DNA of 64,000 bases from an uncultured virus (IMG/VR IMGVR_UViG_2706794926_000001) (taxonomy: Duplodnaviria > Heunggongvirae > Uroviricota > Caudoviricetes), in the IMG/VR virus record IMGVR_UViG_2706794926_000001. The stretch is one strand, 5' to 3'. Positions 36,155 through 62,993 of this stretch are shown here, piece by piece. The stretch's first letter is position 1; every line of letters begins with the position of its first letter. Under the pieces are notes generated by a model, which saw nothing but the letters and a program-made list of their open reading frames with translations, was not told the DNA's origin and made no database searches. The position numbers and the translations under genes were made by a program.

Positions 36155-36155
36155 T

Positions 36156-42524: not shown

Positions 42525-44009
42525 TTAAAATTTATCCAATGTGTTGATTGTATAAGCAGCGCTTTCACTTGATAATTTATTTACAAATACTGCATCATAG
42601 TCTTTATGAAATACTATATATGCTTTATCAATAAAATCATCATATACATCAATACTATAATCTTTTATCTTCGTATACTTATCATTTCTTCCAAATAGCT
42701 TTATTGTTTGCAATTTAGCATCAGTTGCATCAAATTTGAAATTTAAAAAGAAGTCATATTTTAGTATCTCTTTATTTAATATACCACAGCTTTTCCGTAA
42801 ATTATCTTGATCGTCTCTATTATAATCAATAAAATAATCTAATTTATTTTTATCTGGAGAGGTTATATCAATAAATGTATGATCCAAATTACTAGTTAAT
42901 GAAGTAAATTTGTCTTTTACTTTTATAGTTGTTTTAGCTAATGATATATTAGATGGTTCATATATCATTTTTAATTCTCTGTCATCTAAACTGGCTTGTG
43001 TAAATGCACAGATCTGACATTTAGAGAAATCAAGTATATCTGATGGATATAACGTTTTTCCATTCATTACAAATGGTTTATTCAGATCATCAGGCTTTGT
43101 AATTGTATAGTTATTTAATATATATTCTATAGTTACACTATTAAATTTTTTATTGTGTATATCAAAAAAAGCTTTTTGTGGAATATAATATGCCCCATCT
43201 TTTTTTAATAGATAAAACATTTCATAGTCCTCATATGTTATAATTGCTTTTCCATTACCATTGTTAACTCCAGCTATAGCGGTGGGATTTAATAATGAAC
43301 CATAATATGATGAGCCACCACCAGCACCTCCATGACCACTACCAGCACCTCCGTACCAGCCACCGCCACCACCACTTTGAGTGTTAGCACCACCTACTCC
43401 AAATCCTCCATTTATACTATCACTTTTGAGTATTCCGTTTTGATACCATCTGTAACTTCCGGCACTTGTTTGAGTTCCTCCAGTACCATAACCATATCCA
43501 TAAGACATACCACCAGAGTTTTGTCCCGCAGTTGTTCCGTCTGTACCAACTAATCCTCCCCCGTCTCCACCAGAACCATAACCATATCCATCATCCCTAG
43601 AATTTGCTCCACCACCACCTCCAGCCACTAATACTCTACTTTGCAATCCAGTTAAGGTATCCCAAGCTCCAGAGCTGGTTCTAAAATCTGTTGCACCTCC
43701 ACCTGGCGCTCCATATAATGATTGACCACTAAGTAAGCTTCCTCCTCCATTATATCCTCCAGCATCAGAAGTTGAATCAGCTGCATTAGTATCTCCACCT
43801 TGACCACCTACATATATATATATAGTTTGTCCAGCTAACAATTTTATATCTCCAGAAGCATATCCACCTTTTCCACCTCGCTGACTTGTAGATCTAGCCG
43901 AATTACCTCCACTTGCACCATATGCTTCAAGTGAATACCTTCCATTTAACGGAGCTGTAAAAGATTGTACTCCACCAGTATAATTAAATATTAATGTTTT
44001 TAAAGCCAT
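42525..44009 (-). CDS. Glycine-rich cassette protein G9 (intact)
   Basis: FNYTGGVQSF..P..G.Y.LEAYGASGG, GGGATDFR, VAGGGGG, GGGWYGG, GGGGSSY; C-terminus TINTLDKF. Confidence 0.8.
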   Translation of the reverse strand: MALKTLIFNYTGGVQSFTAPLNGRYSLEAYGASGGNSARSTSQRGGKGGYASGDIKLLAGQTIYIYVGGQGGDTNAADSTSDAGGYNGGGSLLSGQSLYGAPGGGATDFRTSSGAWDTLTGLQSRVLVAGGGGGANSRDDGYGYGSGGDGGGLVGTDGTTAGQNSGGMSYGYGYGTGGTQTSAGSYRWYQNGILKSDSINGGFGVGGANTQSGGGGGWYGGAGSGHGGAGGGSSYYGSLLNPTAIAGVNNGNGKAIITYEDYEMFYLLKKDGAYYIPQKAFFDIHNKKFNSVTIEYILNNYTITKPDDLNKPFVMNGKTLYPSDILDFSKCQICAFTQASLDDRELKMIYEPSNISLAKTTIKVKDKFTSLTSNLDHTFIDITSPDKNKLDYFIDYNRDDQDNLRKSCGILNKEILKYDFFLNFKFDATDAKLQTIKLFGRNDKYTKIKDYSIDVYDDFIDKAYIVFHKDYDAVFVNKLSSESAAYTINTLDKF

Positions 44010-45331
44010 TAAAATCCCCCCATGGTATCTTTAATAATATTTTCTTTTCCACAAGTAAGTTTTTTAACAACTAAATTAGTAACATGCTCAGGAACTACAA
44101 TAGTAGCTTTGCTTTCAGAACCACATTGAATATTTACTGGAATATCTACTTTCTTATATTGAGGAATAATTTGCTCTGTAAATCCATTAAATATTTCATT
44201 ATCCTCTATGTGAATATATATATATTTATATGCTGTATCAATTTCATCTATATATTTGCAATTATTAATAACATAGTCTCTAATAAAATAATTATCTATA
44301 TTATCAATATATACTTTATTGTAATTCTTATTATCATAGTAATTGAACCATGTTTTTAAATCATTAGAAAATAACATCTTGTGTTTCCCTGCTGTTTTTA
44401 TATTTTCATACGTATAGCCTAAAACATTTAATAATAGAAAAGCATTGCTGCTTATTGGAATATTAGCTGACGAATATTCTCTTAAAGTAAGAAATACAAT
44501 TTTAAATGGAGAAAGACTATGCAGATCATTTATAAATTCAAAGTCTTCTATATTGAATCCATTTTCATATTTCATTTCTGTTTTTATTAATGTTCCATTA
44601 TAACATGAGTAGCATATACCATCATCAGATAGTACGAACATTTTAGTACCATTCCAAGGATTACTTCCAGAATAAACTCCATATAAGCTATTATCTCCAG
44701 TAATAAGTAAAAATTCAAAGCCATATGTTTGATTATATAAAGAATTTGTTTCTATATTATTTGGAACAGATGAAATTCCAAGGTAATTAGTAGTGCATTT
44801 ATTTAAAGTACATGCTCCTAAAACTATGGGATAACCGCGATCAAAAAAAAATGAGCAGGAATTAAATGACTTATTGCATACAAACATAGCTGTGTTGTTA
44901 TGAAAATAAAACAGTACTTCTGTTGGAAATACCCCGCTAGGGGATTTTGTAAAAAATACATTATTAAATACAACTGCCTTTGTATCACTTGTATATATTA
45001 CTGCTCTTACATCTCCATTATAATTATTACACGGCCTAACTACACATTTGTTTATAGTCATTTCATTTTTAAAACCAGCATTACAATAGCAATATTGAAA
45101 TTCTATAACTGTAGAAAATCCATTTCCATAATAATTTATTACATTGGTAGTCAAACTCATATCAACAGCAGCATACATTTTATGTACACCTCTACTTAAA
45201 TATATATCAATTTCACCCATTGATGCTGTAATCATTGTTAGTGCAAAAGATATCGTTGCAAAAGGGTTAGCTTTGCTTCCATCTCCAGTAGTATCACTTC
45301 CACTTAAGCTAACATAAAATTTTTTATTCAT
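44009..45331 (-). CDS. Module B protein 3, with an extra N-terminal beta-helix-like passenger
   Basis: FYVSLSGSDTTGDGSKANPFATI; C-terminal half paralogous to 55246-55902 (SSNAF, KHKML.SNDLK.W); ends KDTMGGF. Confidence 0.7.
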   Translation of the reverse strand: MNKKFYVSLSGSDTTGDGSKANPFATISFALTMITASMGEIDIYLSRGVHKMYAAVDMSLTTNVINYYGNGFSTVIEFQYCYCNAGFKNEMTINKCVVRPCNNYNGDVRAVIYTSDTKAVVFNNVFFTKSPSGVFPTEVLFYFHNNTAMFVCNKSFNSCSFFFDRGYPIVLGACTLNKCTTNYLGISSVPNNIETNSLYNQTYGFEFLLITGDNSLYGVYSGSNPWNGTKMFVLSDDGICYSCYNGTLIKTEMKYENGFNIEDFEFINDLHSLSPFKIVFLTLREYSSANIPISSNAFLLLNVLGYTYENIKTAGKHKMLFSNDLKTWFNYYDNKNYNKVYIDNIDNYFIRDYVINNCKYIDEIDTAYKYIYIHIEDNEIFNGFTEQIIPQYKKVDIPVNIQCGSESKATIVVPEHVTNLVVKKLTCGKENIIKDTMGGF

Positions 45332-46001
45332 TAAGGAGTGTCATCCAATACAAATCATAATCCTTTAATGTTGTAATATTATCTACTAATTCTACTGGAA
45401 GATAATCAGTTACATATACATTATATCCATTTACTGTATTTTCTTTTTGAAGTGTTAAAGAAACGGAGGTTTTTGGTACAGCACCATCATCAGTTATTTC
45501 TACATATCTAGGATCATATTCTAATAAATCCTTTGTTGTTGTATTTATATTTATAACTTTATGCTCAATAGGAGTCCCTTGCTCCGTTTGTACATAACAT
45601 TGAATCAAAAAGTCACTTCCATCACCTTTAAGTGGAATAGTCACAGCTTGACCAGCCACAACATCTTTAAAAACAAATTGCTCCACATTATTTATATAAA
45701 TAGAATCCCCTGTTGGTCTCATATCTGCAGAATTAAAATCGGTCTTAAGCTCATCATAATTATTATCAACCTTAGCTGATAAATTACTGATAATGCTATT
45801 TGCAGTTTTTATATCTGAAGTATTCTGACTTATAATTTGATTATTATTTTCTATTTTAGTACTTAATTCTTTATTGTCGAAATCGACTTTTACCTCTAAA
45901 TTAGAGATCTTAGAATTTAATGCAGTAAGTTTGTTTTTAAGATAATCATATAATTTAGTAGAATAATAAGTTAATCCACTATTATCCAAATATTTTTTCA
46001 T
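45324..46001 (-). CDS. Module A protein 3 (YLD..GL.YY fibre adaptor-like coiled coil)
   Basis: First ~110 aa near-identical to 55909-56565. Confidence 0.75.
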   Translation of the reverse strand: MKKYLDNSGLTYYSTKLYDYLKNKLTALNSKISNLEVKVDFDNKELSTKIENNNQIISQNTSDIKTANSIISNLSAKVDNNYDELKTDFNSADMRPTGDSIYINNVEQFVFKDVVAGQAVTIPLKGDGSDFLIQCYVQTEQGTPIEHKVININTTTKDLLEYDPRYVEITDDGAVPKTSVSLTLQKENTVNGYNVYVTDYLPVELVDNITTLKDYDLYWMTLLNE

Positions 46002-46264
46002 TAAAGAACCACTCCTTTACTTTTCAAATAAGTATGAAGATACAAATTTAGCTCACTTGATATTTTTTTAGTAGAATCAATGCTCTAATTTTCAACAGCA
46101 TCTGAACTGATTGAATAATAATTTATTAATTTTCACTTGTTTTATCTGTATTTAATATACTGCAATTCTTATATGATTTGGTTTCATCATAATCAAAAAA
46201 ATAATCTATTTTTGTTTATTGGGATCATAGATGCAATTGTTTTAAGTATTTTTAAAAATTTCCT
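46002..46264 (-). pseudogene. Deletion scar with fragments of a glycine-cassette C-terminus and of a 608-aa-like gene
   Basis: Encodes KIDYFFDYDETKSYKNCSILN; contains gagcattgattctactaaaaaa and ttatttgaaaagtaaaggagtg matching the 3' end of 56565-58382. Confidence 0.7.
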
Positions 46265-47456
46265 CTAAAATTTATCTAATGTATCAATTGTATAATCCAA
46301 TGATTGTTTTTCAATCATATTTACAATTACTTCCTCATAGTTTTCTTTGAAACTTATGAGCATTTCAAAATTAAATTTACTATATACATCAACATTAGTG
46401 CTTTTTAGTTTAATATATTTATCATTATTTTTACCATATAATGTTATTGAATTAAATAATCCATCATATGAATTAAATTTAATATTTAAGTAAAAATTAT
46501 TAATTGCAATATCATCATGTAATACACTACAATTTTTATATATTACGCTTTTATCACTATCATTCTCAATATAGTAGTCCAACTTAGTTTTATCCAAAGT
46601 ACCTATGTCTAAATAAGAAATATAATCGTTAGGACTAAGTTTATATAAATTTGGCTCATATTTTATTTTTATGTTTGTTTTTGATAGTGCAGTTTCTGAT
46701 GGAATATATGATAAGGATATCTTGCTTAGAAGTGCATCATTTAAAGGCATTAAACACAATTGATACTGCATTAAATCTATAAGTTTGAATGGTGTGTATA
46801 TTTTAGTATCTATAGAAAATGTATTATTTAAGTGATTGTATTCTATTAGACTAGGATCTTCATTTATCTGATTCATAACATCAACTAATGTTACTGGCAA
46901 AAATGTATTTGTGCTGGGATTGAAATATTTAGCAATTGGCATGTAATATTCCTCATTCTTCTTTAAAAACGATATATAACTTATTTCTTCATATGTTATT
47001 ACTACTTTTCCATTACCAGAATTTATGCCAACTGTTGTTTGAGGTTCTAGCAATTTTCCATAGTATGATGAACCTCCACCGCCATAGTAACCACTACCAC
47101 CTCCGCCAGAATCGTAGTTATTTCCATTACCACCGTAACCAAATCCACCATAATTGGGGCCAGCACTTGATATTTGAGATGCACCACCACCACATCCACA
47201 TCCCGTACCAGCATTTCCACTAAGTCCACCTCCGTTACCTCCACAAGCGCCTTGCAATCCATCATCTGACCCACCACCGCCAGCCCCAACTATAATTCTC
47301 GAGCTTAATGACGATATGTCATTCCAATTACCGCCTATAGTACGAACATCAGAAGCACCTCCTCCTCCAGCATCTCCAGGATTATCTGCACCATTCTATT
47401 TTTATTTTTTATGTACCTACTGGTGGAATCAAAGTCTGTACTGCTCCTGTATAATT
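46265..47456 (-). pseudogene. Glycine-rich cassette G8, 5'-truncated and internally deleted
   Basis: 47411-47456 matches the start of G6 (NYTGAVQT..PP.GT) but lacks ATG/RBS and hits a stop; downstream frame 46265-47257 ends TIDTLDKF. Confidence 0.75.
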
Positions 47457-47470
47457 ATGCTTAGTTTAAA

Positions 47471-48457
47471 CTAGCCTTCTTCAACTAAAAATCCACCAAT
47501 TATAATTTTATTTCCACTGCTCTCAGGATTTCTGTTCTCACTAAGTTTCATTAAAAGATTATGATTCCCATCTTCAATATCTTTTAAATTAATTAATGTA
47601 GAAAAATATTCTTCGTTATTCATGTACAAATCTAATTTAAAAGTAAATTTATCATCCAATATACACTCCAAAATCCCTGATGCTTTTGATAGCAAAGCCA
47701 TTACACTTAAATATCTTCCTTTAAAATTAATTTCAATACAATCCCCTATATTCTCTGTCATAGCACCAACACTAAATTTATTATTCAAATTTACTTCTTT
47801 TTCAATCCAATTACCATAAAAAGTACATTCTTCATAAGATTTTATTCCCGGATTCCTTAATATATAGTTAGTAGTTGGCTTCTTATCCCCCCAACATTCT
47901 ATCTCTCCAAAATTTAAATTCTTTAATACTTCAATTATAATTTGACAATAGGTTTTATGCCCCATATCATTAGGATGGAGGTTATCTATAGATATATCAT
48001 TCCATGTATATTTATCACTACCTATTTCTTTCCAAACACTATCTTGAACATCTATAACTGGTATATTATAATGATAAGCTATTTTCTTATGTGCTGTAGA
48101 ACACGAATCACTCATTCCAGTTGGCATTTCTAATGAAACTATCTTAACTTCTTTATTCCATTTGAATATTTCTATAATTAAATTTTCATAATAGATATTT
48201 ATATCTTCCAAGGGAAAAATTCTATCATTAACTGCAAATTCTAAGAAAACAACATCTGGCCTCTTTTCCTTGAAATACTGACTAATTCTAAATACTCCAA
48301 AGTTAGACCCAGTACCGCCTGCGCCTAAATTTATTATATTTAAATTTTCCTTATATTCATCCTTTAAATACTTACTAACCAAGGCTGCATAGCTATTCTC
48401 ATACTTACTAGCACCTGCTCCCTCTGTTATAGATCCTCCTACAAAATAAATATTCAT
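47471..48457 (-). CDS. SGNH/GDSL-family hydrolase
   Basis: GGSITEG, NLGAGGTGS, EFAVND, DNLHPND.GH. Confidence 0.9.
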   Translation of the reverse strand: MNIYFVGGSITEGAGASKYENSYAALVSKYLKDEYKENLNIINLGAGGTGSNFGVFRISQYFKEKRPDVVFLEFAVNDRIFPLEDINIYYENLIIEIFKWNKEVKIVSLEMPTGMSDSCSTAHKKIAYHYNIPVIDVQDSVWKEIGSDKYTWNDISIDNLHPNDMGHKTYCQIIIEVLKNLNFGEIECWGDKKPTTNYILRNPGIKSYEECTFYGNWIEKEVNLNNKFSVGAMTENIGDCIEINFKGRYLSVMALLSKASGILECILDDKFTFKLDLYMNNEEYFSTLINLKDIEDGNHNLLMKLSENRNPESSGNKIIIGGFLVEEG

Positions 48458-48494
48458 ATTTTCTCCTTTATCTATATTTCAAATTTTATACAAT

Positions 48495-48690
48495 CTAGCA
48501 ATACACTTCTAATACTTTTTACTATTGACTTCAATTTCAATATTAGTTATTCTTAATTCACCAAATAATCTCTCAGTTTTTCTAAAATCAAATATAAAAA
48601 AATATCCTTTTTCTAGTTTATATTGTTCCAAATACTCATGTTTCACAAACTCTTGAAACTTAATAAAAATTTTTTTATATCTAAATTAAC
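48495..48690 (-). pseudogene. 3' remnant of an unrelated gene carried in with the SGNH gene
   Basis: Reads EYLEQYKLEKGYFFIFDFRK...EVYC*, resembling C-termini of clostridial AAA-like/nuclease proteins; no start. Confidence 0.4.
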
Positions 48691-48851
48691 ATTATTTGTT
48701 ACATTTATTTTATCACATTATGAGTTTATTTACACATATAACTTATTTTTACTATTTCAATATTGGATAAGATAATGATAACATTCTTTAGCCTTTATGT
48801 TTAGAAACAATATTTTTCATCAATATACATGCTGAATGCCTGTTATAACTA

Positions 48852-50417
48852 CTAAAATTTATCTAAAGTATTAATTGTATACTCCAGTGATTGTTTTGCA
48901 ATACTATTAACTAGTACTTCCTTATAATTATCTTTAAAACTTATGAGCATTTCCGAGTTAAATCTATTATATATATCAATATTAGTACTTTTAAGTTTTG
49001 TATATTTATCATTATTTTTACCATATAATGTTATGGAATTAAGTATTCCATCATATGAATTAAATCTAAGATTTAGATAGAAATCATTAATTATAATATC
49101 ACTATTTAACATATTGCAATTTTTATATAATTCATTTTCACCAAAATCTAAAAAATAATCCATTTTGGACTTATCATTTGAATTTATATTTAAAAATGTG
49201 GGCTCAAGCTCATCATGTACTGGCGTATATTCATTTTTTACTTTTATGTTTGTTTTAGATAAAGCTATGTTTGACGGGATATAATTTAAATTTAATTTAT
49301 CTACAATCTTTTCACATATGACACAAATTTTATATTTAGTTAAATCTATTATTTCTAATGGATTAATATTTTCTCCATTTACTGTTATTTGAGTATTTAA
49401 TCCAGTAATAGAAATTGGCATACGCGTTTTATTTAAAATTTCTGTTTCAAGTTCGGTTAGTGTTAACTTTTTAAAATTCCTAGTATCTATATCAAAAAAA
49501 TCTTTTGTTGGAATATAAAAATTATTTTCATCGCTAAATATAAAACTTGCTGCTACAGATATTCTTGCAAAACCATCACCAAAATTACCCTTCATAGTAG
49601 AATTTTTATCAGTTATTGAGGGCATATCCTCATATCCAGCTTTTGCAAGTTCTATTCCAGTAGTTCCAACATAATAACTACCTCCACCTCCACCAGTATT
49701 ACCATAACCATCTCTAGTAGAGTCACCGCCAGAATAGCCACCACCTCCTCCAGCACCATTATAGTAGTATCCTGGAATTCCACTCATATAACCTATCATT
49801 GCAATAAAGCTCGAGCTACCTCCACCTCCAAATCCCCCTTTAGGTGCTGATCTTAAATCAACAGTATATCCTCCAGCATTTGTAGAGATATTCCCATATC
49901 CACCAGCGCCTCCGTTTTTAAAAGACCAACCACCATAAAGCCAAGCATAAGCATGAGTTGACGGAGTACAGGTCATTCCTGCTCCATTTCCAATATATCC
50001 AGCACCACCGCCTCCTGCATAGGCTGAACCACCATTGCTTATATTTCCATTATATCCAGTTAAATTATAGTTACCTCCCTGCTGCCCTGCTTGCCCATGC
50101 GAATAATTACTTGAAAGTCTGCTGAACATAGAACCTCCTCCGCCTCCTGCACAGCAAAGAAGAGTAGTAGAATTTAATTCTACAAAACTTCCACCACCAC
50201 CACCACCTCTTGAACCATCCCATGCACCTTTTCCAGCTACTAATATTTTTAATACATCACCCTCATGTAAATAATGTGTACTCCTTGAATATGCGCCAAG
50301 ACCACAAGTTGATCTATCTTCACCACCACCAGAAGCCCCCCAGCATTCTATAACATATCTTCCTTCATTTACAATTTTATATGTTTCTATTAATCCACTA
50401 TATTTAAAATTCATCAT
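48852..50417 (-). CDS. Glycine-rich cassette protein G7 (intact)
   Basis: IECWGASGG, GGGGGSFV, GGFGGGG, GGGGGYSGG; ends TINTLDKF; ATG at 50417 follows GGAG. Confidence 0.8.
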   Translation of the reverse strand: MMNFKYSGLIETYKIVNEGRYVIECWGASGGGEDRSTCGLGAYSRSTHYLHEGDVLKILVAGKGAWDGSRGGGGGGSFVELNSTTLLCCAGGGGGSMFSRLSSNYSHGQAGQQGGNYNLTGYNGNISNGGSAYAGGGGAGYIGNGAGMTCTPSTHAYAWLYGGWSFKNGGAGGYGNISTNAGGYTVDLRSAPKGGFGGGGSSSFIAMIGYMSGIPGYYYNGAGGGGGYSGGDSTRDGYGNTGGGGGSYYVGTTGIELAKAGYEDMPSITDKNSTMKGNFGDGFARISVAASFIFSDENNFYIPTKDFFDIDTRNFKKLTLTELETEILNKTRMPISITGLNTQITVNGENINPLEIIDLTKYKICVICEKIVDKLNLNYIPSNIALSKTNIKVKNEYTPVHDELEPTFLNINSNDKSKMDYFLDFGENELYKNCNMLNSDIIINDFYLNLRFNSYDGILNSITLYGKNNDKYTKLKSTNIDIYNRFNSEMLISFKDNYKEVLVNSIAKQSLEYTINTLDKF

Positions 50418-50430
50418 AAAAATTTCTCCA

Positions 50431-51738
50431 TTAGAAAGTATCCAAATTATCATTAAAATACTTAAAATATTGCTTAGTTAACCTATTTATCAATACTTTT
50501 CCATACGCTTTTTCAAAATTTACAAATGTATCAACAAAATCATTACTTATAATTAAATTGTCATTTTCTATTTTAGAATAAGTAACACTATCGTTTTTAG
50601 ATAATGTTATTGTAGTTAACATTGTTGCTGATTTATTAAATATAAAACTTAAATAAAAATCATCTTTTAAAATTTCTGTATCTATAAAATATGCATTATT
50701 ATTTGATGCAGTCTTAAAAGTTTTGTCAAAATCAATTGCATATCCAATGCCAGATTCATTTGTTCCAATAATATATAAATAAGCATTTTTTAAATCCTCT
50801 AAAAAGGGAGTATATTTTTCTTTTATTTTAATAGTCGTTTTAGACAATGAGTATATTGATGGATTATAATTAAAGATAATATTTTTAATATTTAATTTAC
50901 TAATCATACATAGTTTGCACTTTTTAAAATCAAGTACTTTAGATGGAATTATTGTTTCACCATTAATATCGAAAGGTGAATTAATATTATCAATCTTATA
51001 AATTTGAGCGTTATCATTATTGTTAATAATTGAAAAAATATCATCTGCGCTTAATGGCTTAAAAAAATTTCCCCTAACATCATAATATTGTTTTTGGGGA
51101 ATATAATACATATCATCCATTTGTAAAAATAACTTTAATGGAAATTCTTCAAAGGTTATCACTACTTTTCCATTACCATTGTTTATTCCAGCTGTTGTCC
51201 CACTATTTTCTAACAGAGCTATATAAGAGGAACCCCCTCCACCTCCAGCATCCCCATTACCAGATCCGCCTCCATAATAGCCACCACCACCTCCTCCACC
51301 ATCTCCTGGATGACTTCCACCATATCCAAAACCTCCATTTCTAGAACCTGTACCTCCATAAACTTGACTTCCACCTATAGCACCACCACTTCCAGTATTT
51401 CCAGTCAAACCACCTCCTTCACCACCATTTTGATAATATCCACCACCTCCGCCTCCTCCAGAAGAACCAGATGGTCCAGCATTACCTCCACCATTCCATC
51501 CTCCACCACTTCCAGATGCTCCAGAAACTCCAGCTCCTCCTACATAAATGTAAACAGTTGAGATTTTAATTTTAAAAACATATTCCCCATAGCTATATCC
51601 ACCATAACCACCAGAACCTCCACCATCATTTCCACCACCTGCACCATAACATTCTATTTTTATTCTTTCTGTACCTATTGGTGGAGTCCAAGTCTGTACT
51701 GCTCCTGTATAATTAAATATAATTGTTTTTAATGCCAT
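50431..51738 (-). CDS. Glycine-rich cassette protein G6 (in-frame internal deletion likely)
   Basis: FNYTGAVQTW; lacks the ASDIR...RIIVA segment between glycine runs; ends NDNLDTF. Confidence 0.75.
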   Translation of the reverse strand: MALKTIIFNYTGAVQTWTPPIGTERIKIECYGAGGGNDGGGSGGYGGYSYGEYVFKIKISTVYIYVGGAGVSGASGSGGGWNGGGNAGPSGSSGGGGGGGYYQNGGEGGGLTGNTGSGGAIGGSQVYGGTGSRNGGFGYGGSHPGDGGGGGGGYYGGGSGNGDAGGGGGSSYIALLENSGTTAGINNGNGKVVITFEEFPLKLFLQMDDMYYIPQKQYYDVRGNFFKPLSADDIFSIINNNDNAQIYKIDNINSPFDINGETIIPSKVLDFKKCKLCMISKLNIKNIIFNYNPSIYSLSKTTIKIKEKYTPFLEDLKNAYLYIIGTNESGIGYAIDFDKTFKTASNNNAYFIDTEILKDDFYLSFIFNKSATMLTTITLSKNDSVTYSKIENDNLIISNDFVDTFVNFEKAYGKVLINRLTKQYFKYFNDNLDTF

Positions 51739-51750
51739 AAAATCACCTCG

Positions 51751-52908: not shown

Positions 52909-52935
52909 AAAAATTCCTCCTAAAAAGCTGCTTCA

Positions 52936-54303
52936 TTAGAATGTATCCAAATTATCGTTTAAATACTTAAAATATTGCTTAGTTATTCTATTTATAACTG
53001 TCTCTGAACATTTTTTTTCAAAAGTAATTTGAGTATTTATATAATCATTACTTATATTTAAATCATCATCTTCTATTTTAAAATAATTAATATCTCTACT
53101 GCATAATGATACTGATTTTAACAAACTCATTACATCATTTAATTTAAAGCTTAAATAAAAATTATCTTTTAATAACTTTTTATCTATCGAACTGCAATCG
53201 TCATTTACGATGTCATATATATTTTCATAATTTATAATATAACTAATATTAGCTTTATTGGCTGCTTCTATGTTCAGAAAGGGATTTTGAATATTATTTT
53301 TATACGGAGTGTACATATCTTTAATTTTAATGTTAGCTTTAGATATGGCTTTAGTTGTAGGAATATAGTTTATATCTAATTCTTTAACATATTCATTAGT
53401 CCTAGAACTATTAGGTATAACACATATTTTGCATTTAGATATATCTAGATAATCAAGTGGATTATATACAATTGAATCTATCACAAATGGTTCATTTATA
53501 TTATATATACTGATATTTCCATAGTTGTTATTATTAATTTCGTACCTTAAATCATTTAAACTAACAGCTTTAAATTTCTTTGCATCAGTATCAAAGTACT
53601 TTTCTATTGGTAAGTAATATTCTTCACCTTTCTTAAAAAAGAAAGCAACTTCGTCGTAAATTAGAGATATAACTACTTTTCCATCTCCAGTATTAATTCC
53701 TGAAACTGTAGAAGCGTTTTCTAGTAGACCTAAATAAGATGAACCGCCTCCACCACAGCCACCAGTTGAACCTATCGCACCATATCCACCGTAGTATCCA
53801 CCGCCACCTCCAGCATTGTCGCCATTACTAGAATTTCCTCCAATACCAAAAGACGCTCCTGATGTTTGATTAGCAACTCGTCCATTATCACTAGGACCAC
53901 CAATAAGACCACCTCCATAACCACCGTTGCCAAGAGGAGTATCTCCAGATGCTCCTCCTCCACCTCCAGCAACAATTATTCTATTTTTTAAATCTGTTGC
54001 ATTAACTCTTATATCTGATGACCCACCTCCACTAGCACCACATGTGTCACTAGCTCCATATCCGCCACCATTAAAAGCATATGCTGGATATCCACCATCT
54101 GTACCCTTTTGCCCAACATATATGTATATTTTTTGTCCTTTTATTAAATTTATATCTCCTTTGGCATATCCACCATATCCACCAATATACCCTCCTGTGT
54201 TGCCACCCTGAGCACCCCAACATTCTAATCTATATTTCCCACTATAAGGAGTAATCCATGTTTGTGCTTGCCCAGTATAATTAAAAGTAAAAATTTTTTG
54301 CAT
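52936..54303 (-). CDS. Glycine-rich cassette protein G4 (intact)
   Basis: FNYTGQAQTW, LECWGAQGG, SSDIR...RIIVAGGGGG; ends NDNLDTF; ATG at 54303 follows AGGAGG. Confidence 0.8.
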   Translation of the reverse strand: MQKIFTFNYTGQAQTWITPYSGKYRLECWGAQGGNTGGYIGGYGGYAKGDINLIKGQKIYIYVGQKGTDGGYPAYAFNGGGYGASDTCGASGGGSSDIRVNATDLKNRIIVAGGGGGASGDTPLGNGGYGGGLIGGPSDNGRVANQTSGASFGIGGNSSNGDNAGGGGGYYGGYGAIGSTGGCGGGGSSYLGLLENASTVSGINTGDGKVVISLIYDEVAFFFKKGEEYYLPIEKYFDTDAKKFKAVSLNDLRYEINNNNYGNISIYNINEPFVIDSIVYNPLDYLDISKCKICVIPNSSRTNEYVKELDINYIPTTKAISKANIKIKDMYTPYKNNIQNPFLNIEAANKANISYIINYENIYDIVNDDCSSIDKKLLKDNFYLSFKLNDVMSLLKSVSLCSRDINYFKIEDDDLNISNDYINTQITFEKKCSETVINRITKQYFKYLNDNLDTF

Positions 54304-54394
54304 AATAAACCCTCCTAAAAAGCACATATGCCATATTGCAAAATGATGTAGTTTTTCCCCTATTCAACCAATTCTATAGAGCCTTGTATAATTG

Positions 54395-55233
54395 CTAAAA
54401 CTTATCTAAAGTATCAATTGTATAATCAAATGATTGTTTTGCAATCATATTAACTATCAATTCCTCATACTTATCTTTGAAACATACTAACATTTCCGAA
54501 TTAAAGTTATTATATACTTCTCTATCAATGCCCTTAAGTTTAGTATATCTATCATTATTTTTCCCATATAATGTTATAGAATTAAGTATTCCATCATATA
54601 AATTAAATTTAAGATTTAGATAAAAATCGTTAATTATAATATCCTTATTTAGCATACTACAATTTTTATATGATTTATCTTCACTAAAATCTAAAAATAA
54701 TCTACTTTTAATTTATCATTTGAATTTATATCTAAAAATGTATGCTCAAATTCATAATGTACTGGCGTATATTTATTTTTTACTTTTATATTTGTTTTAG
54801 ATAAAGCTATGTTTGATGGGATATAATTCATATCTAATTTAGAATCTTTATTAATATCAATAATACATATTTTTGAATTAGCATAATCCAATATATCATT
54901 AGGAAAATAATAAACTCCATCTATCATAAATGGCTTATATAAATTAATTAATGGATATACAGCAGAAGTATATCCGCCATACCAGCCACCTCCGCCTTGT
55001 CCAATATTCCCACCATTTCCATCCCACACAACACTCCATGCATCTTGACCTCTTCCGAATGCATATCCACTGGTTTGAGTTGCTGGGGAGCTTGTATTAT
55101 TAGCACCCATTCCCCCAGTTAATCCCCCACCTTTAGCACCATAACACTCTATTTTTATCCTATATACACCCTCTGGTGGAATCCAAGTCTGCATTATCCC
55201 TGTGTAATTAAATGTGACTGTTTTTACTCCCAT
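54395..55233 (-). pseudogene. Glycine-rich cassette G3, internally deleted and frameshifted
   Basis: ORFs 54691-55233 and 54395-54655 join into one paralog of G7; A5 at 54693-54697 versus A6 in G7; ends TIDTLDKF. Confidence 0.8.
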
Positions 55234-55245
55234 AGTAAATTCCTC

Positions 55246-55902
55246 CTAAAAAACAGCTATACTATCCTTTATAATTGTGTTCCTCTCTACAGATTTTGTT
55301 TTTTTGATTAATACTTGACTATATTTTTCTGGAAAAGTTACAGTCACTTGATTTATTGCTCCTGTATTAAAATTTGTATCATAATCAATCCTCTTATATT
55401 CTCCTAATATATTTTCAAATAATTTATTTAGCAATTCTCCATCATTCAATTTTAATAAAATATAGCTATAATTTTTGCTAATATAGTTAATATATTTACA
55501 TTTACTATTTACATAATCTTTGATGTATCTATCAGAATAGTTCTCAAAATATCTAGAGTCACAATTATTAGAATCATAGTAGTTATCCCAATTTTTTAAA
55601 TCATTTGATACGAGCATCTTATGCTTGTTTTCAAATTGAATGTTCTCATGCTTTATATTAGTTAAATTTATAAGAATAAAAGCATTGGAACTATTTATTT
55701 TATAGACCATGCTCTTATTCTTATTAGCATTAAATAATACAATTTTAAAAGGTGCATATGCTTTTAACTCATCCCTTAAAGAATCTAAAAGGGATGAGTC
55801 AAAAGCATTTTCAATATTTAATGTAGTTTCAGCTAATTCATTATTTTCAATACCAAAGTATTTATTTCCTGAATATATAAGGCAATTCATTTTAAGCACC
55901 AC
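55246..55902 (-). CDS. Module B protein 2
   Basis: Paralog of the C-half of 44009-45331; ends KDSIAVF. Confidence 0.72.
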   Translation of the reverse strand: MVLKMNCLIYSGNKYFGIENNELAETTLNIENAFDSSLLDSLRDELKAYAPFKIVLFNANKNKSMVYKINSSNAFILINLTNIKHENIQFENKHKMLVSNDLKNWDNYYDSNNCDSRYFENYSDRYIKDYVNSKCKYINYISKNYSYILLKLNDGELLNKLFENILGEYKRIDYDTNFNTGAINQVTVTFPEKYSQVLIKKTKSVERNTIIKDSIAVF

Positions 55903-55908
55903 TTTCGT

Positions 55909-56565
55909 CTAAGATAATTTATAATCTGTTAAATTATTTATACTATCTACCAGTTCTACTGGAAGTAAATCAGTAGTGTAGATATTATATTCACCAATTG
56001 TGCCTTGCAAAGTTAAATCTAAGGTTACATTATCTTTAGGCTTTGCTCCATAATCTGTTATTTCAACATATCTATCATCATATTCTAATAAATCTTTTGT
56101 AGAAGTATTAATATTCAAGCTCTTATGGACAAGTGGTGTTCCAGTTTCTGTTTTTACAAAACACTCTATAAGAAAGTCACTTCCATCTCCTGAATTTGGG
56201 ATTGTAACTGTTTCTCCAGCGCCTATATCCTTAAATACAAATTGCTCCACATTATTTATAAAAATAGAATCACCCGTTGGTCTCATATCTGCAGAATTAA
56301 AATCCGCCTTAAGCTCATCATAATTATTATCAACCTTAATTGATAGATTACTGATATTGCTATTTGCAGTTTTTATATCAGAAGTATTCTGATTTATACT
56401 TTGATTATTATTTTCTATTTTAGTGATTAATTCCTTATTGTCGGAATCGACCTTTACTTCCAAATTAGAAATCTTAGAATTTAGTGCAGTAAGTTTATTT
56501 TTAAGATAATCATATAATTTAGTAGAATAATAAGTTAATCCACTATTGTCCAAATATTTTTTCAT
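55909..56565 (-). CDS. Module A protein 2
   Basis: MKKYLDNSGLTYYSTKL; INNVEQFVFK; paralog of 45324-46001 and 62337-62993. Confidence 0.75.
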   Translation of the reverse strand: MKKYLDNSGLTYYSTKLYDYLKNKLTALNSKISNLEVKVDSDNKELITKIENNNQSINQNTSDIKTANSNISNLSIKVDNNYDELKADFNSADMRPTGDSIFINNVEQFVFKDIGAGETVTIPNSGDGSDFLIECFVKTETGTPLVHKSLNINTSTKDLLEYDDRYVEITDYGAKPKDNVTLDLTLQGTIGEYNIYTTDLLPVELVDSINNLTDYKLS

Positions 56566-58382
56566 TAACTAATCACTCCTTTACTTTTCAAATAATTATC
56601 AAGATAAGAATTTAATTCACTTTTTTTAATGTAATCGCTATTAAAAGATATTATATTATCAGAATCATTAATATAATATAGCTTTTTAGTTACTTCATTA
56701 AATACAAACTTACCAATCCCTAGTTCACTGGATACTTTTTTAGAAGAGTCAATGCTCCAATTTCCAGCTACATCTACCATCCAAGTTGAATTTGTTCTTG
56801 AATCATAAATATATTTATTATCTTTATCAAATTTTATATCGGAAAAACTAGAATACATTTGAGATAGACAAGAATATCCATATTGACATGGTCCTTTAAA
56901 TTTACTTAGTAACTCATTAGAATTTAAATCAATGTCAATTTTATTATAAGCAGAAACTGTAGTTGAATTCATATCAGAACTATAAGTTGTTATCTTATCA
57001 CCGTCTCTTATTATCTTCAATCTTATACCATTTGGTATATCTGCCCAATTACCGACAGTATCTGAGCTGATTGAATAATAACTTATTAATTTTTCATCAC
57101 TTCTATTATAGTTATATACAATTGCATATTGAGTTGATATATTTTCTACTAAAACATGAGACTCAAAGCTCCTCATTCTTACAACAGAAAGAGTATATTC
57201 TCTTCCAGCTGCATCTTTTGTAAATGCTATTACAGATCCTATGGCATCATTATCCATGTCTGTTGATGATATAGTAACTTCAAGATTATAATTATCATAT
57301 TTTTCTGGACTTATAAAACCAATATAACTGATAGAATTATTTTGACATATTATCTTTTTCTTATCCGAATCATATACCCAACCAGTAGTTTCTGATGTTA
57401 CCGCTGGCTGACTTTCGCTACTATCATGTGAAAATCTATACCAAGTATTATAAATTACTGAAGGATCTATTAAGGTTACTTTTGCATCCTCAAGTTCCTT
57501 ATCTGTTTCAATTATAGTTGCTTTATATAAAATATATCCTGGAGTTATTTCACTTGAACTATTGCCTTTTATATAATATACTTGCCCATTATTTCCACAT
57601 GGTTTTGATTTCCACTGTGCATCTCCATCAGCTTTCCATTCTAATATTTGGTCAGAATTACCTCCTGACGGAATATGGTTATATCCAGAACCCGTTGGAT
57701 GAATATAATTCTTTACATTTGCTTCTATTCCATCTAATTTTATCTTATCTTCTTTTGACATTATTCCGTCAGCTGTTTCTGTCACTTTATTTAAGGCAAC
57801 ATCTGCCCACTCTGCTTCTCCATCACTGTGCCATTTTAAATATTGTCCGCTAGCTCCTCCAACAGGAATATGGTTATATCCTCGTCCTATGGGATGTATG
57901 TAAAAATTTGCATTTGCTTCTATTCCATCTAACTTAATCTTATCAAGTTTATCCATATACCCATCTTCAGTGTGCGTCACAAGCTCCGATTTTCGGTAAT
58001 ATAAATCATTATGGTTATGAGGCAGTGGAATCCTTGCATCTGATAATCTTGGATCATTCCCTTCACATACTGTACCACTATCAGTTCCAAAAGGCCTGTT
58101 AAATGCTGAATATTTTGTTGGAATCTTAGGCTCACCATTTAAATCATCCAATGTTAATTTAACAACTCCGGACATATTGTTTATGCTCAACACTCCTGAA
58201 GCTTTCTCAAATATAATTTCTTTTTTTGCTCTCTTAACAGCTTCTGTAATTATTGACTCAACAGATTTATCTAAAAACCCAGGATCATTTTCAATAAATC
58301 TTTTAAACATATTTAGGAAATATTTTTCCATTTCATCTAATTCTTTTGTATATGTTGCATCATTTTTTTTATCTATTCTCAT
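56565..58382 (-). CDS. Module C protein: tail-fibre-like with lectin-like C-terminal beta domain
   Basis: EGNDPRLSDAR.P.PH.H, two DG.M.K.DKIKLDGIEAN repeats, HIP.GG...Q.L.W; ATG at 58382 follows GGGTGA (track start 58391). Confidence 0.75.
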   Translation of the reverse strand: MRIDKKNDATYTKELDEMEKYFLNMFKRFIENDPGFLDKSVESIITEAVKRAKKEIIFEKASGVLSINNMSGVVKLTLDDLNGEPKIPTKYSAFNRPFGTDSGTVCEGNDPRLSDARIPLPHNHNDLYYRKSELVTHTEDGYMDKLDKIKLDGIEANANFYIHPIGRGYNHIPVGGASGQYLKWHSDGEAEWADVALNKVTETADGIMSKEDKIKLDGIEANVKNYIHPTGSGYNHIPSGGNSDQILEWKADGDAQWKSKPCGNNGQVYYIKGNSSSEITPGYILYKATIIETDKELEDAKVTLIDPSVIYNTWYRFSHDSSESQPAVTSETTGWVYDSDKKKIICQNNSISYIGFISPEKYDNYNLEVTISSTDMDNDAIGSVIAFTKDAAGREYTLSVVRMRSFESHVLVENISTQYAIVYNYNRSDEKLISYYSISSDTVGNWADIPNGIRLKIIRDGDKITTYSSDMNSTTVSAYNKIDIDLNSNELLSKFKGPCQYGYSCLSQMYSSFSDIKFDKDNKYIYDSRTNSTWMVDVAGNWSIDSSKKVSSELGIGKFVFNEVTKKLYYINDSDNIISFNSDYIKKSELNSYLDNYLKSKGVIS

Positions 58383-58506
58383 ATTTATCACCCTTAATAT
58401 TAAATTTGAAATATTATTTCATTAATTTTATACTTAAATATAAATTCTAATAATTAATATACTTCTTAAAATTAGTAAATTTCTTATTATTTTAATTCTT
58501 ATATAT

Positions 58507-59901
58507 TTAAAATTTGTCTAAAGTATCATTTAAATACTCAAAATATTGTTTCGTAATTCTATTTATTAAAACTTGTTTATAATTACTATTAAAAGTTATA
58601 TAAGTATTAATATAATCATTTTCAATATTAAAATAATCAATACTCTGTTTGTAATTAATGTTCTCTTCACTATATAAGCTTATTGAATTTAAAATACTTG
58701 TTTTGCTATCTAATTTAAAACTTAAATAAAAATCATCTTTAAGGATCTCCTCATACAACACGTCGCACGTATTATTTATATAATTTTTATAGTAATAATC
58801 GAGACTATAACTTATATTTCTTTTGTCTGCGGCTATTATATTCAAATATGGATTAAATATATTATCATTAAATGGTGTGTATTTATCTTTAATTTTAATA
58901 ATTGTTTTTGATAATGCACAAGAGGAAGGATTATAATCTAAAGTAATACTATTGAAATTTTTAAATTCAATTACAACTAATTTATACAAAGTAAAATTTA
59001 TAATATCTGCTGGATAGAAACTTTCTCCATTTACCATAAAAGGAGCATTTAAATTTGGTATATTACTGGTATATATAAACTCCTTAGTACGAGCTATTAT
59101 TTCATCTATAGTAGCTTCCTTAAAAGTTTTCGTCGTAATGTCAAAATGCTCTTTATCAGGTATATATAGTTTAGTATCCTTTTCAAGAGCTACTATATTA
59201 GTTGAACAAAGTGATATTATTATTTTTCCATTGCCAGTTTGAACACCAGCAGTAGTACTTCCATCCCATAATCCGCTAATATAAGATGAGCCACCACCAC
59301 CTCCACCATCATCATTACCTCCACATTCACCACAGCCTCCACCATACCAGCCGCCACCTCCGCCGCCGCCATATGAGTTCCCTACAGAATTTCCACCTTG
59401 TCCGAAACTTCCATCTTGGTTATACCAACCACTATCTACTTGATTCCCCCTAGTACCACCACTTGTTTGAGTTCCACCATGGCCCAAATAGTATGATGGG
59501 CCAACACCATCTCCACCGACAAGCCCACCTCCAGCACCACCTATATAATTCCATGTAGCGTTGGGGCCATAGCCAGTTCCGCCACCACCTCCAGCGACAA
59601 TAACTCTATTTGATAGCGAAGTCCCACCAATTCTAATATCACTAGCATCTCCACCAGAATATACTGAATAACCTCCTCCATTCCATATATTATTATAATT
59701 AGGACAAGCTCCTACATATATATATATTTTTTGTCCTTTAGTTAAATATATAAACCCTTTTGAATATCCACCTTTCGCTCCATTATTATTTCTACTTCCA
59801 CCTTGAGCTCCCCATACTTCAAATTTATAAAATGATGTATATGGTATGATAAACTCCTGTATACTTCCAGTATAATCAAAAATATATTGACTTATAATCA
59901 T
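58507..59901 (-). CDS. Glycine-rich cassette protein G2 (intact)
   Basis: FDYTGSIQEF, FEVWGAQGG, ASDIR...RVIVAGGGGG; ends NDTLDKF. Confidence 0.8.
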   Translation of the reverse strand: MIISQYIFDYTGSIQEFIIPYTSFYKFEVWGAQGGSRNNNGAKGGYSKGFIYLTKGQKIYIYVGACPNYNNIWNGGGYSVYSGGDASDIRIGGTSLSNRVIVAGGGGGTGYGPNATWNYIGGAGGGLVGGDGVGPSYYLGHGGTQTSGGTRGNQVDSGWYNQDGSFGQGGNSVGNSYGGGGGGGWYGGGCGECGGNDDGGGGGGSSYISGLWDGSTTAGVQTGNGKIIISLCSTNIVALEKDTKLYIPDKEHFDITTKTFKEATIDEIIARTKEFIYTSNIPNLNAPFMVNGESFYPADIINFTLYKLVVIEFKNFNSITLDYNPSSCALSKTIIKIKDKYTPFNDNIFNPYLNIIAADKRNISYSLDYYYKNYINNTCDVLYEEILKDDFYLSFKLDSKTSILNSISLYSEENINYKQSIDYFNIENDYINTYITFNSNYKQVLINRITKQYFEYLNDTLDKF

Positions 59902-59990
59902 TAGAACACATCCATTCTATATAAAAAGCTTATTCGAATTTTAAAATTATATATCATTTTTTTATTTACTCTCATATTTATCACCTTCAC
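59901..59990 (-). pseudogene. Deletion scar: start of a module-C-like gene fused to the end of a module-B-like gene
   Basis: aaggtgataaatATGAGAGTAAATAAAAAATGA matches the RBS and start of 56565-58382; ends atggatgtgttcTAAtg (MDVF*) overlapping the G2 start. Confidence 0.6.
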
Positions 59991-60050
59991 TTATTTAGAG
60001 TGAAAGTTGATTAAACTTTCTAATATTTCAACTACATTTAAAATTTCATT

Positions 60051-61667
60051 TTAAAATTCTTCTAAAGTCTCTATTTCTCTACAGATTATATCTTTTGAGA
60101 ATTTATTTATAATAAGTTCAGAATGAGGAGCTTTTAATTTTATATATATTTTATCTTTATTGCTATATATATCTGCATCTTCTTTCCATAACTTTCTATA
60201 ACTATTGCTGGTTTTTGCAATAAGTTTTATTTGCTTAAGTTTATCATTAGAATTATAAACATTATCAATAAAACCTATTGATAAATTAATTATATTGGAT
60301 TTTATAAAATACGATGACAAATCACCAGCCTTTATTCCAGCTTTGAATATATTATAAATAGAGTCCTTTTGCTGCTCATTATTATAATAATCCTCATATT
60401 CTTTAATCATTACCTTCATATTTTTAGTAGTATTTATTGTAAAATATATATCAGAAAGTTCATCATATATAATTGCATCATCTTTTAATTTTATTTGAGA
60501 TTTCAATCTGACTTCTTCATTTATTTTGTAAACAAGTTTTAGTTGATTATAATCTTCAAAATTAGAATAATCACTACTGCACACTTTGATTATTTTGTCT
60601 TTTTCTAAGTCAAAATAATGTAATGGGTTTATTGTTTTTACATCAGTCCCATTAGCTACAGTAAATGGATTAAATAATTCTATAGCATTATAAATACATT
60701 GATCAAACACAATAATTGAATTATCAGAATATATCATATCATTATATACTTTAGATGCATCTTCTTCAGTTAACGGAATAAATTTACCATAGTATTCTGA
60801 AAAAAAGTACTTATTGGGAATATATAATTTTTCATCATGCTTAATAAAATATAATGCCTGAGGGATATATGATATTTTCACCTTGCCAATTCCAGGATTA
60901 CCAACTACTGTTTCCGCTTGTATTGCATTACTTTGAGAATCATAATTTGGATTTGGCATTGTTAAATTTCCAGCTATTAGCATTGGTGTGTCTATACAAT
61001 AATAATAGCTATCATCTATATATCCACTTGGTTTATATGAAGTTCCAGATAATACATATCCAGCACCTCCTCCACCTCCAGAATCATCATCTGCACTACT
61101 ATCTACAGATCCACCGCCACCACCATACCAGCCGCCACCGCCGCCGCCACTATAACCTCCCCATGCAGCCATTCCGTATCCGCCATATCCAAATCCTCCT
61201 GGTACTCCACCTCCAGAACCGCTTTGTGTACCACCTAGTCCTGGGCTACCACATCTAGAAATTCCATTTCCTCCAGATAGCCCTCCTCCATATCCGTAAT
61301 AGTCCACAGAAGTATTATATCCACAAGTACCACCGCCACCAGCTACAATGATTCTATTATTTAAGGTATCTGCTCCAACTCTTACATCAGAAGCTCCTCC
61401 ACCATAACCTCCCCATCCGGCTCTACCGCCACCATTAACTCCATTATTATCTCCAACTTTAACAAATATTTTATCTCCAATTTTAAATCTAAAAACAGCA
61501 CATGCATATCCACCTCGACCACCCAATCCAGTTGAACTTCTTGCTGCAGCAGCAGACCCCCAGCATTCAATTTTATATATTCCAGGTCTTGCTTGAAATG
61601 AATATGCTCCAGATGTATTATATTCTGCTAAAACTCTAAACAAATTATAATTAATAGTGACAGCCAT
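60051..61667 (-). CDS. Glycine-rich cassette protein G1 (intact, most divergent)
   Basis: YKIECWG, GGGASDVR...RIIVAGGGG, GGGWYGGG; ends ETLEEF; ATG at 61667. Confidence 0.8.
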   Translation of the reverse strand: MAVTINYNLFRVLAEYNTSGAYSFQARPGIYKIECWGSAAAARSSTGLGGRGGYACAVFRFKIGDKIFVKVGDNNGVNGGGRAGWGGYGGGASDVRVGADTLNNRIIVAGGGGTCGYNTSVDYYGYGGGLSGGNGISRCGSPGLGGTQSGSGGGVPGGFGYGGYGMAAWGGYSGGGGGGWYGGGGGSVDSSADDDSGGGGGAGYVLSGTSYKPSGYIDDSYYYCIDTPMLIAGNLTMPNPNYDSQSNAIQAETVVGNPGIGKVKISYIPQALYFIKHDEKLYIPNKYFFSEYYGKFIPLTEEDASKVYNDMIYSDNSIIVFDQCIYNAIELFNPFTVANGTDVKTINPLHYFDLEKDKIIKVCSSDYSNFEDYNQLKLVYKINEEVRLKSQIKLKDDAIIYDELSDIYFTINTTKNMKVMIKEYEDYYNNEQQKDSIYNIFKAGIKAGDLSSYFIKSNIINLSIGFIDNVYNSNDKLKQIKLIAKTSNSYRKLWKEDADIYSNKDKIYIKLKAPHSELIINKFSKDIICREIETLEEF

Positions 61668-61668
61668 A

Positions 61669-62340
61669 TTAAAATTCCTCCAATGAATCCTTTTTATACT
61701 CATTTACATTTGTTACATTAACACATAAGTTACTAAAGTCTGTTGATGTTAAATTTTTTATTTTTATGGAGTTCTTACTTATCTCTGTATACATATCTAT
61801 GTTTTTAACTGTTGTTTCATCCAAATAATTTCGATAATAAATTCTATCCAGCTTATTATTAAGTTTCATAAAAATATATTTTATTTTATTGTTATTTATA
61901 AAACTTATTTCCTTTGTATTATTATTAATATATTCCTTCATTTTCAACAATTCTGATTTTTGAAGATTTGTAATACTAGTGAAGGAATTTAAGGAAACAT
62001 TAAATTCGGTTACTATATAATTATCTTCATCAAGATAATTTAACCATATAACTCCATCTTCACTTACAAGTACATTTTGTTTAATCTCAAAACACACATT
62101 TGTAAATGGACTGTTTACTTTAATTAATAAAAAACCATAACTATTTTTTATATGAAATATACTTTGACTTACATTATTTATACTAACAAGTTTTTTATTT
62201 TTAATTAACTCTTTATCTGCCCTTAACAAATCTGATATTTCAAATCCATATTTACTTATATTCTTTAATGCATCTATCTCAAATACCTGACCAGATAAAT
62301 TATAATATAGTCCTTTAACATCTTTTAATAAGTAACTCAT
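61669..62340 (-). CDS. Module B protein 1
   Basis: Positional and weak sequence paralog of B2 and B3 (FLLI, LVS.D...W.NY.D); ends KDSLEEF. Confidence 0.68.
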   Translation of the reverse strand: MSYLLKDVKGLYYNLSGQVFEIDALKNISKYGFEISDLLRADKELIKNKKLVSINNVSQSIFHIKNSYGFLLIKVNSPFTNVCFEIKQNVLVSEDGVIWLNYLDEDNYIVTEFNVSLNSFTSITNLQKSELLKMKEYINNNTKEISFINNNKIKYIFMKLNNKLDRIYYRNYLDETTVKNIDMYTEISKNSIKIKNLTSTDFSNLCVNVTNVNEYKKDSLEEF

Positions 62341-62993
62341 AACACACCTATTTGTTCCTCTATTGATATGATACTTTCAAATCTTTCAACTATTTCACTT
62401 GGAATAACTTCTGACTCATACACATTAATTGTTTCATTATTATATTTAAATTGTTTTTTATTAAACTTCAATAATATAGTATCTTTTGGTTTTGCCCCAT
62501 CTAAATCTATATCTATATAATTTTCATCATAGACTAACTTATCTTTATTATTTTCATTTACATCTATTGAAACACATTCTACTTGAGTTCCTGCATCTAT
62601 TTCCGTATAACATTCAATTAAATAGTTAGTATCTCTACCATTATTAGGTATTTCAATCACATCATTTATTTTTACATTTTTATATACAAATTGCTCCACA
62701 TTATTTATATTTGTTATTGGATAAGTGGGTTTATCATCTACTTCTGTTTTTAGATTTTTTATCTTAACATCCAGCTCATTGATATCCGCATTTGTTTCTT
62801 GTATACTTTGAATACTCTGATTTATTATATTAGTATTATTACTTATCTTATATTCCAGTTCAGTTTTATCGTAATCGACTTTTGATTTTAAAGAATTTAT
62901 ATCATCTTGAACTTTAGAGACTTTACTCACTAAATAATCCTTTAACTTATTTGAATAATAAACCAAACCACCTTGATCTAAGTATTTTCTCAT
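62337..62993 (-). CDS. Module A protein 1
   Basis: MRKYLDQGGLVYYSNKL; INNVEQFVYK; YLIECY; GAKPKD. Confidence 0.75.
   Translation of the reverse strand: MRKYLDQGGLVYYSNKLKDYLVSKVSKVQDDINSLKSKVDYDKTELEYKISNNTNIINQSIQSIQETNADINELDVKIKNLKTEVDDKPTYPITNINNVEQFVYKNVKINDVIEIPNNGRDTNYLIECYTEIDAGTQVECVSIDVNENNKDKLVYDENYIDIDLDGAKPKDTILLKFNKKQFKYNNETINVYESEVIPSEIVERFESIISIEEQIGVL

Follow-up and report, generated by a model that had tools for sequence, protein, structure and literature searches.

The 64,000-nucleotide (nt) stretch analysed here (IMG/VR record IMGVR_UViG_2706794926_000001, an uncultured virus of the Caudoviricetes; hereafter the window) carries on its minus strand, at 42525-62993, nine glycine-rich genes or gene remnants (G1 to G9) and three companion genes (B1 to B3), located as the sequence-only reading had placed them. 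Interspersed are three A genes, encoding putative adaptors, and a fibre-like gene, C. The array is real and modular, its members have an uncatalogued domain in common, and it sits in the unusual context of a headless phage tail; it is half decayed, and its mechanism is what we infer. At roughly even confidence, we propose from sequence that the shared C-terminal module docks interchangeable glycine-rich heads on a predicted R-type tailocin-like particle, a polarity reversed from that of usual receptor-binding proteins (RBPs). The window corresponds to G000:C2:65688-129687, part of the 136,188-bp contig C2 of genome G000.

Each of the 12 G and B frames closes with Phe, within the end motifs originally quoted for them, against a background of 166 in 4649 chromosomal open reading frames. 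The shared segment had been put at ~50 amino acids (aa), which is too short: the eight G frames with the whole module align over 231-270 aa with 27-44% identity to G9, and the resulting module of ~235 aa matches no Pfam family. A profile of the eight modules matched 59 clusters among 1.84 billion, several of them the own proteins of G000 or of its relative G079. When 45 module hits were scanned against Pfam, the glycine-rich domain PF12810, which we take to be a polyglycine-II fold, was found in 34 (6 of these twice, and 2 with an extra weak CE2_N-like domain); the other 11 were without any family, four being module-only and possibly fragments. Terminal Phe is present in 41 of 46 full-module hits (13 partial hits excluded). 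Within the array, the description of the G heads as glycine-rich stands for 8/9 genes by PF12810, the G3 match being below the cut-off; G8 has no match. The conclusion that a conserved, uncatalogued module can follow one or two glycine-rich domains, follow domains of other kinds or stand alone is supported, and the plug-in design first proposed, one C-terminal module under differing heads, is borne out by the heads listed in this profile search across databases.

Following up P0069, the weakest hit, uncovered a second, clostridial family: 48 proteins bearing RCC1, F5/8, SPRY or LamG heads, among whose records one is named Clostridium butyricum and one Caudoviricetes. Its profile (47 aligned) matches the G module with an hhalign probability of 97% (E 1.7e-11, 219 columns), and the head of B3 recurs on five of its proteins (E 1e-10 to 1e-24). 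The family is also represented in a 159-kb viral contig, where a likely lysis gene follows soon after. Its members mostly end in ...VNILI, without the Phe tail, and a universal role for the terminal Phe as a signal is rejected, as the residue is missing in this family, in 5/46 database hits and in P0042. The latter is a natural fusion of a G7-like protein with an N-terminal domain like that of the neighbouring fibre gene F4 (E 2e-25) and has no free terminal Phe; P0117 has a weaker F4-like end. The first subdomain of the second family resembles CST109 of phage c-st (38% over 73 aa).

An AlphaFold2 model of the G7 module (51 rows) reached pLDDT 83 and pTM 0.56, and consists of an alpha/beta part (residues 1-90), a beta-sandwich (92-183), a hairpin and a tail (220-234) with pLDDT <50, in which an Asn and the Phe are the most conserved columns. 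The fold search gave no PDB or BFVD match at E<=0.001, and VIA returned generic beta-sandwich rows only (best Z 5.8, root-mean-square deviation 3.3, 85 aligned). ESM Atlas had no usable hit for the G module or A2, and phmmer of G2 against PDB gave 0 matches. A single module query found no match in INPHARED, PLSDB or IMG/VR. Among 201 relatives, three of the 195 scored had a hit at E<=0.001, namely G000 itself, G079 with the only clear match, and one weak hit; among 399 class-level genomes the four other hits were all confined to the glycine-rich part. PHROGs places these proteins in families of unknown function, apparently built from the present sequence. No description of this module or of a headless plasmid tail of this lineage was found in a literature search that covered mainly open-access main texts.

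Contig C2 is clostridial and plasmid-like (29% GC, with a ParA gene), and G000 also has a 6.53-Mb chromosome. The array lies within a long minus-strand gene run that extends ~50 kb past the window, and the tail operon (~95 kb) makes up most of the 136-kb contig and carries two paralogue arrays. The 778-aa sheath has Bacillus phage 0305phi8-36 as its top phage match, and homologues of gp128-133, 137-144, 147-151, 162-164, 167 and 171-175 of that phage follow in the same order, so that colinear tail and baseplate genes like those of 0305phi8-36-like phage-plasmids are present. Sheath, tube, baseplate and hub genes, as expected of an R-type tailocin, are all found; the tape measure is named by position only (a 1859-aa frame outside the Pfam and PHROGs scans), and the hub protein has SLT and NlpC/P60 domains. 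A GH25 endolysin gene is located at 33592-34710, and no holin family was matched. The G/B array belongs to the fibre region of this contractile tail: it comes after the gp162-164-like region and has homologues of 0305phi8-36 virion genes around it.

The head and packaging module of a 0305phi8-36-like phage-plasmid was not found on C2. Portal, protease, decoration and capsid queries from 0305phi8-36 and the more closely related phage-plasmid pCBJ, together with the pCBJ protein at the terminase position, had no match in G000; as a control, comparing the head proteins of pCBJ with those of 0305phi8-36 gave matches at E 1e-50 to 1e-119. The terminase family PF03237 had no match on C2, and two terminases are on the chromosome only. 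In G079, a continuous 50.6-kb contig crosses the head-gene slot without head genes. The sheath occurs in 3/122 scored genomes of the genus, the G023 contig being too short for a head-gene call. The phage-plasmids (pCBJ of C. baratii, 235-kb B. thuringiensis plasmids) share the sheath family and structural gene order of C2 but encode portal and capsid, the capsid query matching 19 of the 26 plasmid records with this sheath. The other seven are without a match, among them pG9842_140, which has tail genes and no head match in its first 50 kb. Judged from C2, the G079 layout and these seven records, headless giant-phage plasmids are a possible class. In pCBJ (L007:16296-28333), ~40 tiny frames are inserted between the tail tube and chaperone genes.

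Docking is proposed because the module persists under unrelated heads, module-only members exist, and the conserved tail is unfolded on its own. The operon would be expressed and build a headless tail, with the adjacent endolysin releasing the predicted particle. In it, C would be the fibre, A the adaptor and B a module-only or differently headed partner, with the accessory heads docked through the module on A and C. The last 25-50 residues of the module have no fold in the single-chain model and would take on order when bound to A, B or further copies of G. The glycine-rich heads, at the N-terminal end, would point outward and attach to target envelopes, with several head types acting at the same time, before the hub domains breach peptidoglycan; given SLT and NlpC/P60 in the hub, the targets would likely be other Gram-positive bacteria. 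More tentatively, and with clearly less confidence, a plasmid derived from a giant phage may have shed its head and be kept as a mobile tailocin factory, with the module as a transferable docking unit that could display any N-terminal domain, many heads per tail, in reversed polarity.

Part of this proposal has a precedent. In 0305phi8-36, the gp162-164 region was called hyperplastic and a candidate host-recognition determinant, and paralogous repeated domains (families a-c) were proposed as virion anchors for fused domains, some proteins consisting of the domain only (PMC2147016). The phage has its lineage, gene order and variable slot after gp162-164 in common with C2, but it has a head, and its family-a anchor is a ~50-residue repeat. 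The G, B and second-family profiles gave nothing convincing against 54 proteins of 0305phi8-36 (best E 0.006). The clostridial R-type tailocins, diffocins and clostocin O, are headless contractile tails with a lysis gene and are antibacterial (PMC10538166, PMC8285483), and the same is predicted for C2 from its genes. Clostocin O is encoded in a chromosomal prophage-like region (PMC8285483), whereas C2 is a plasmid-like contig with ParA; a diffocin has one main RBP, whereas C2 has two paralogue arrays in a giant-phage-derived tail operon.

In T2-type phages, gp38 is single-copy and its glycine-rich part is C-terminal. By description only, the G proteins can be likened to this separate fibre-capping protein, in which glycine-rich motifs flank variable segments (PMC12892980).

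Several observations weigh against the docking proposal. The first concerns the claim that the G and B C-termini are related: BLASTP detected no homology, and hmmsearch gave E 0.26-3.6, worse than chance chromosomal ORFs. Weak support for the claim comes from profile-profile comparison. Shallow alignments of B and G gave a probability of 8%, and deeper ones 86% by hhalign (E 5e-6, last 74 columns); a separate local run gave 30%, with 0/40 block shuffles reaching the score, and a global run pooling both families 68% over 208 columns (0/30 shuffles). Because of these scores, and despite the negative searches, B is probably a distant, colinear, whole-module homologue of G. The B2 model (pLDDT 55) is too poor for fold comparison, and no longer B homologues were seen among 7996 candidates, which is weak evidence.

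Further unfavourable points come from selection, decay and related systems. Between orthologues, the ratio of nonsynonymous to synonymous substitution rates (dN/dS) is alike in heads and modules (G1 0.25 vs 0.27, G6 0.22 vs 0.25, B3 0.30 vs 0.30); there is therefore no sign of diversifying selection on heads. Module residues 1-90 diverge among paralogues as much as the heads do. Damage is seen in four of the nine G genes, and no fewer than two copies of C have been damaged or lost, with remnants before G2 and before A3. Homologues of gp135 and gp136 were likewise not found on C2. The glycine-rich N-terminus of C. difficile PtsHN10M alone bound no cells (PMC9615553), and the view of this domain as an adhesin is not supported. 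Lastly, deleting five chromosomal prophage-like regions in a solventogenic Clostridium abolished mitomycin-induced lysis (PMC8285483), the endogenous megaplasmid of that strain being known from a cited title only.

The damage consists of a frameshift and deletion in G3, 5' loss in G8 and head deletions in G5 and G6, so that 5/9 G genes look intact. Contigs of RNA run X1 show the same letters at the damaged sites, which makes assembly error unlikely. RNA-run contigs cover the array, patchily and at shallow depth in three of four runs, and level and strand are not readable from them. Of the proposed repeated C-A-B-G(n) modules, three intact A-B pairs and C scars remain, but the full unit is complete only once, with the one intact C gene. 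To speak of a stockpile was thus an overstatement, as no switching machinery was found either: a scan of C2 frames from ~90 aa upwards, apart from the 1859-aa frame, showed no recombinase or reverse transcriptase. A shufflon or diversity-generating retroelement is rejected on this ground and because the cassettes are on one strand with weak AT-rich inverted repeats only; a tandem-repeat artefact is rejected as well.

Array content differs across three related elements. The order in G079 is A1-B1-G1-C(1003 aa)-A2-B2-G(493)-G(455), to its contig end, and in metagenome contig L040 it is G6-G(407)-A3-B3-G9, with neither G7 nor the GDSL hydrolase gene of the window; contigs L041 and L025 are one and the same and not independent. 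As first noticed, G2-G7 alternate between two tail subtypes, alpha (TKQYF) and beta (YGKNND), and G7-G8 breaks the alternation. Repeats are spaced 2.5-2.9 kb, and the alternation fits duplication of a two-gene unit. Paralogues are also mosaic: G3 and G7 share 88% identity in the sandwich and 26% in the preceding part (G3 being partly deleted there), and residues 1-90 of G4 are 69% like G079 G(493), the remainder being of the other subtype. In trees, G4 groups with G5 in residues 1-90 (87/92) and with G2/G6 in the rest (100/100). The tail genes are under purifying selection, with dN/dS 0.07-0.29 in 15/15 gene pairs between related elements that are ~85% identical. The repertoire likely shifts slowly and without a programmed switch, as genes duplicate in tandem, paralogues recombine with one another and sequence between glycine-codon repeats is lost.

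The main rival of the docking proposal, which we consider unlikely, is a head-to-tail chain. Here a segmented fibre would be built with the module as its recurring joint, and each tail would dock in the protein that the following gene encodes (A-B-Gbeta-Galpha...G9-F4), so that gene order would equal assembly order and the heads would be displayed along the chain. The gene order is indeed conserved, most intact junctions have intergenic gaps of -35 to +30 nt, and beta/alpha neighbours recur in G079 and L040, but tandem duplication of a two-gene unit explains the alternation equally well and G7-G8 falls outside it. The fusion of a G module directly into an F4-like domain in P0042, with the weaker case of P0117, would be a link of this kind, unless P0042 is a read-through of neighbours. 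A module tail that is unstructured alone in the model agrees with a chain, which the damaged members would be expected to break.

Conventional polarity, with the glycine-rich domain on the particle side and the C-terminal module binding the target, appears less probable still. It is how C. difficile PtsM/RtbM is organised: a tail-associated protein with an N-terminal PF12810 domain, as in the G genes, whose variable, cell-binding part is C-terminal, and PtsHN10M does bind cells via its C-terminal part, but its glycine-rich part was also insufficient for baseplate docking (PMC9615553). In the G proteins the C-terminal part is, by contrast, shared by nine paralogues and conserved, and no variable C-terminal receptor-binding region is apparent in their sequences. 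The small beta-sandwich in the middle of the module has a weak likeness to carbohydrate-binding folds, and the variability of residues 1-90 would suit a binding surface. Against this, the module is kept while heads are swapped for unrelated domains or absent, and its distal part is the most conserved.

Slightly less probable again is that the array and tail are the decaying relic of a phage-plasmid minus its head and that nothing is built. The four damaged G genes, the scars, the inserted hydrolase gene and the patchy RNA contigs would agree with decay. However, the core tail genes are intact, as are A, B and the other G genes, the low dN/dS holds across elements that have the same headless layout, and the seven plasmid records likewise lack a capsid match. 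Quite improbable is a fourth alternative, in which the shared end would serve as a signal for loading and the G/B proteins would be cargo injected through the tube of a headless contractile machine, perhaps loaded by the MoxR AAA and vWA gene pair at 202-3120 of the window on the same contig: the module tail is conserved and, in the model, unstructured, but the heads are domains of the binding type, among which no catalytic family was found, the module occurs in the 159-kb viral contig, the genes are located in the fibre region, and folded 50-kDa proteins fit a tail tube poorly.

Gene by gene, all on the minus strand, the array is headed by a 283-aa gene (63024-63875), a weak homologue of the 0305phi8-36 virion protein gp167 (E 2.4e-4) that is 91% identical to its G079 copy (dN/dS 0.08). 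A1 (62337-62993) has an N-terminal YLDxxGL motif, is otherwise of no known family and is 39% identical to A2/A3. Then come the module-only B1 (61669-62340), ending in SLEEF, and intact G1 (60051-61703), with a PF12810 head and a divergent 270-aa module (60054-60863). A scar at 59953-59985 keeps the beginning of a C gene that has been deleted (91% over 34 nt when compared with the start of C), and G079 has an intact C at this place, after G1. Intact G2 (58507-59901, alpha) is absent from this place in G079. C (56565-58391) is homologous at residues 312-537 to gp163 (E 6e-34), which according to its record is a tail fibre and a virion protein by mass spectrometry; the C variant of G079 has 1003 aa. 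The putative adaptor A2 (55909-56565) precedes the module-only B2 (55246-55902), ending in SIAVF.

G3 (54395-55233, beta) is broken by a frameshift near 54693, with its head and first subdomain partly deleted, and the intact mosaic G4 (52936-54327) joins an alpha tail to a G5-like first subdomain. By eye, the G4-G5 spacer (52909-52935) is like a B2 end plus ribosome-binding site, suggesting another deleted A-B pair. Compared with the 493-aa G079 relative, G5 (51751-52908, beta) has in-frame head deletions of 35 and 69 aa; G6 (50431-51738, alpha) has one between glycine tracts compared with its L040 orthologue. G7 (48852-50453, beta) is intact, and its module (48855-49556) is the one that was folded. 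The GDSL-family hydrolase gene (47471-48457) interrupts the array, is absent between G6 and A3 in L040, and lies under the longest and deepest contig in three RNA runs that are otherwise patchy, a weak hint of separate transcription. G8 (46265-47457, beta) has a decayed 5' end (remnant 47392-47457) and an open frame at 46265-47257. It is followed by a scar (46007-46213) with a G-module piece and then three pieces of a deleted C gene, and by the putative adaptor A3 (45324-46001, 79% identical to A2). B3 (44009-45331) ends in TMGGF and carries on its B module a ~228-aa head of no Pfam family; the presumed beta-helix, as this head had been described, found no support there. G9 (42525-44009), intact, is the last G gene before F4.

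The second paralogue array, fibre-like F0-F4 (35780-42512, minus strand), includes one member with a tail collar domain; F0-F3 have a ~35-aa N-terminus in common and F1-F4 a C-terminal motif, with variable middles. The label "curly fibre candidate" comes from database records. Further along the same strand (24992-34710) are the endolysin gene and the homologues of virion genes gp171-gp175, and a sigma-factor-like gene (22779-23684), a candidate regulator, closes the structural operon. Promoter and terminator counts were no different from shuffled sequence. Elsewhere in the window, 10412-13873 holds a DNA polymerase III alpha subunit and a frame that by eye looks GroES-like, and no primase or helicase was seen among the scanned C2 frames. 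A Tad2-like (Thoeris anti-defence) Pfam match above the cut-off lies upstream of the tail operon at L003:6176-6703.

Variable fibre arrays are a known kind of system, as are anchor domains and tailocins, and the present case is known from its genes. If the module is a docking unit, it would represent a new means by which tailed particles bear many binding heads. It would also give a function to an unannotated clostridial phage protein family (59 + 48 database hits), and the idea put forward in 2007, that this lineage has paralogous virion anchors, would become directly testable. Headless plasmid-borne tails of giant myoviruses would widen the known origins of tailocins.

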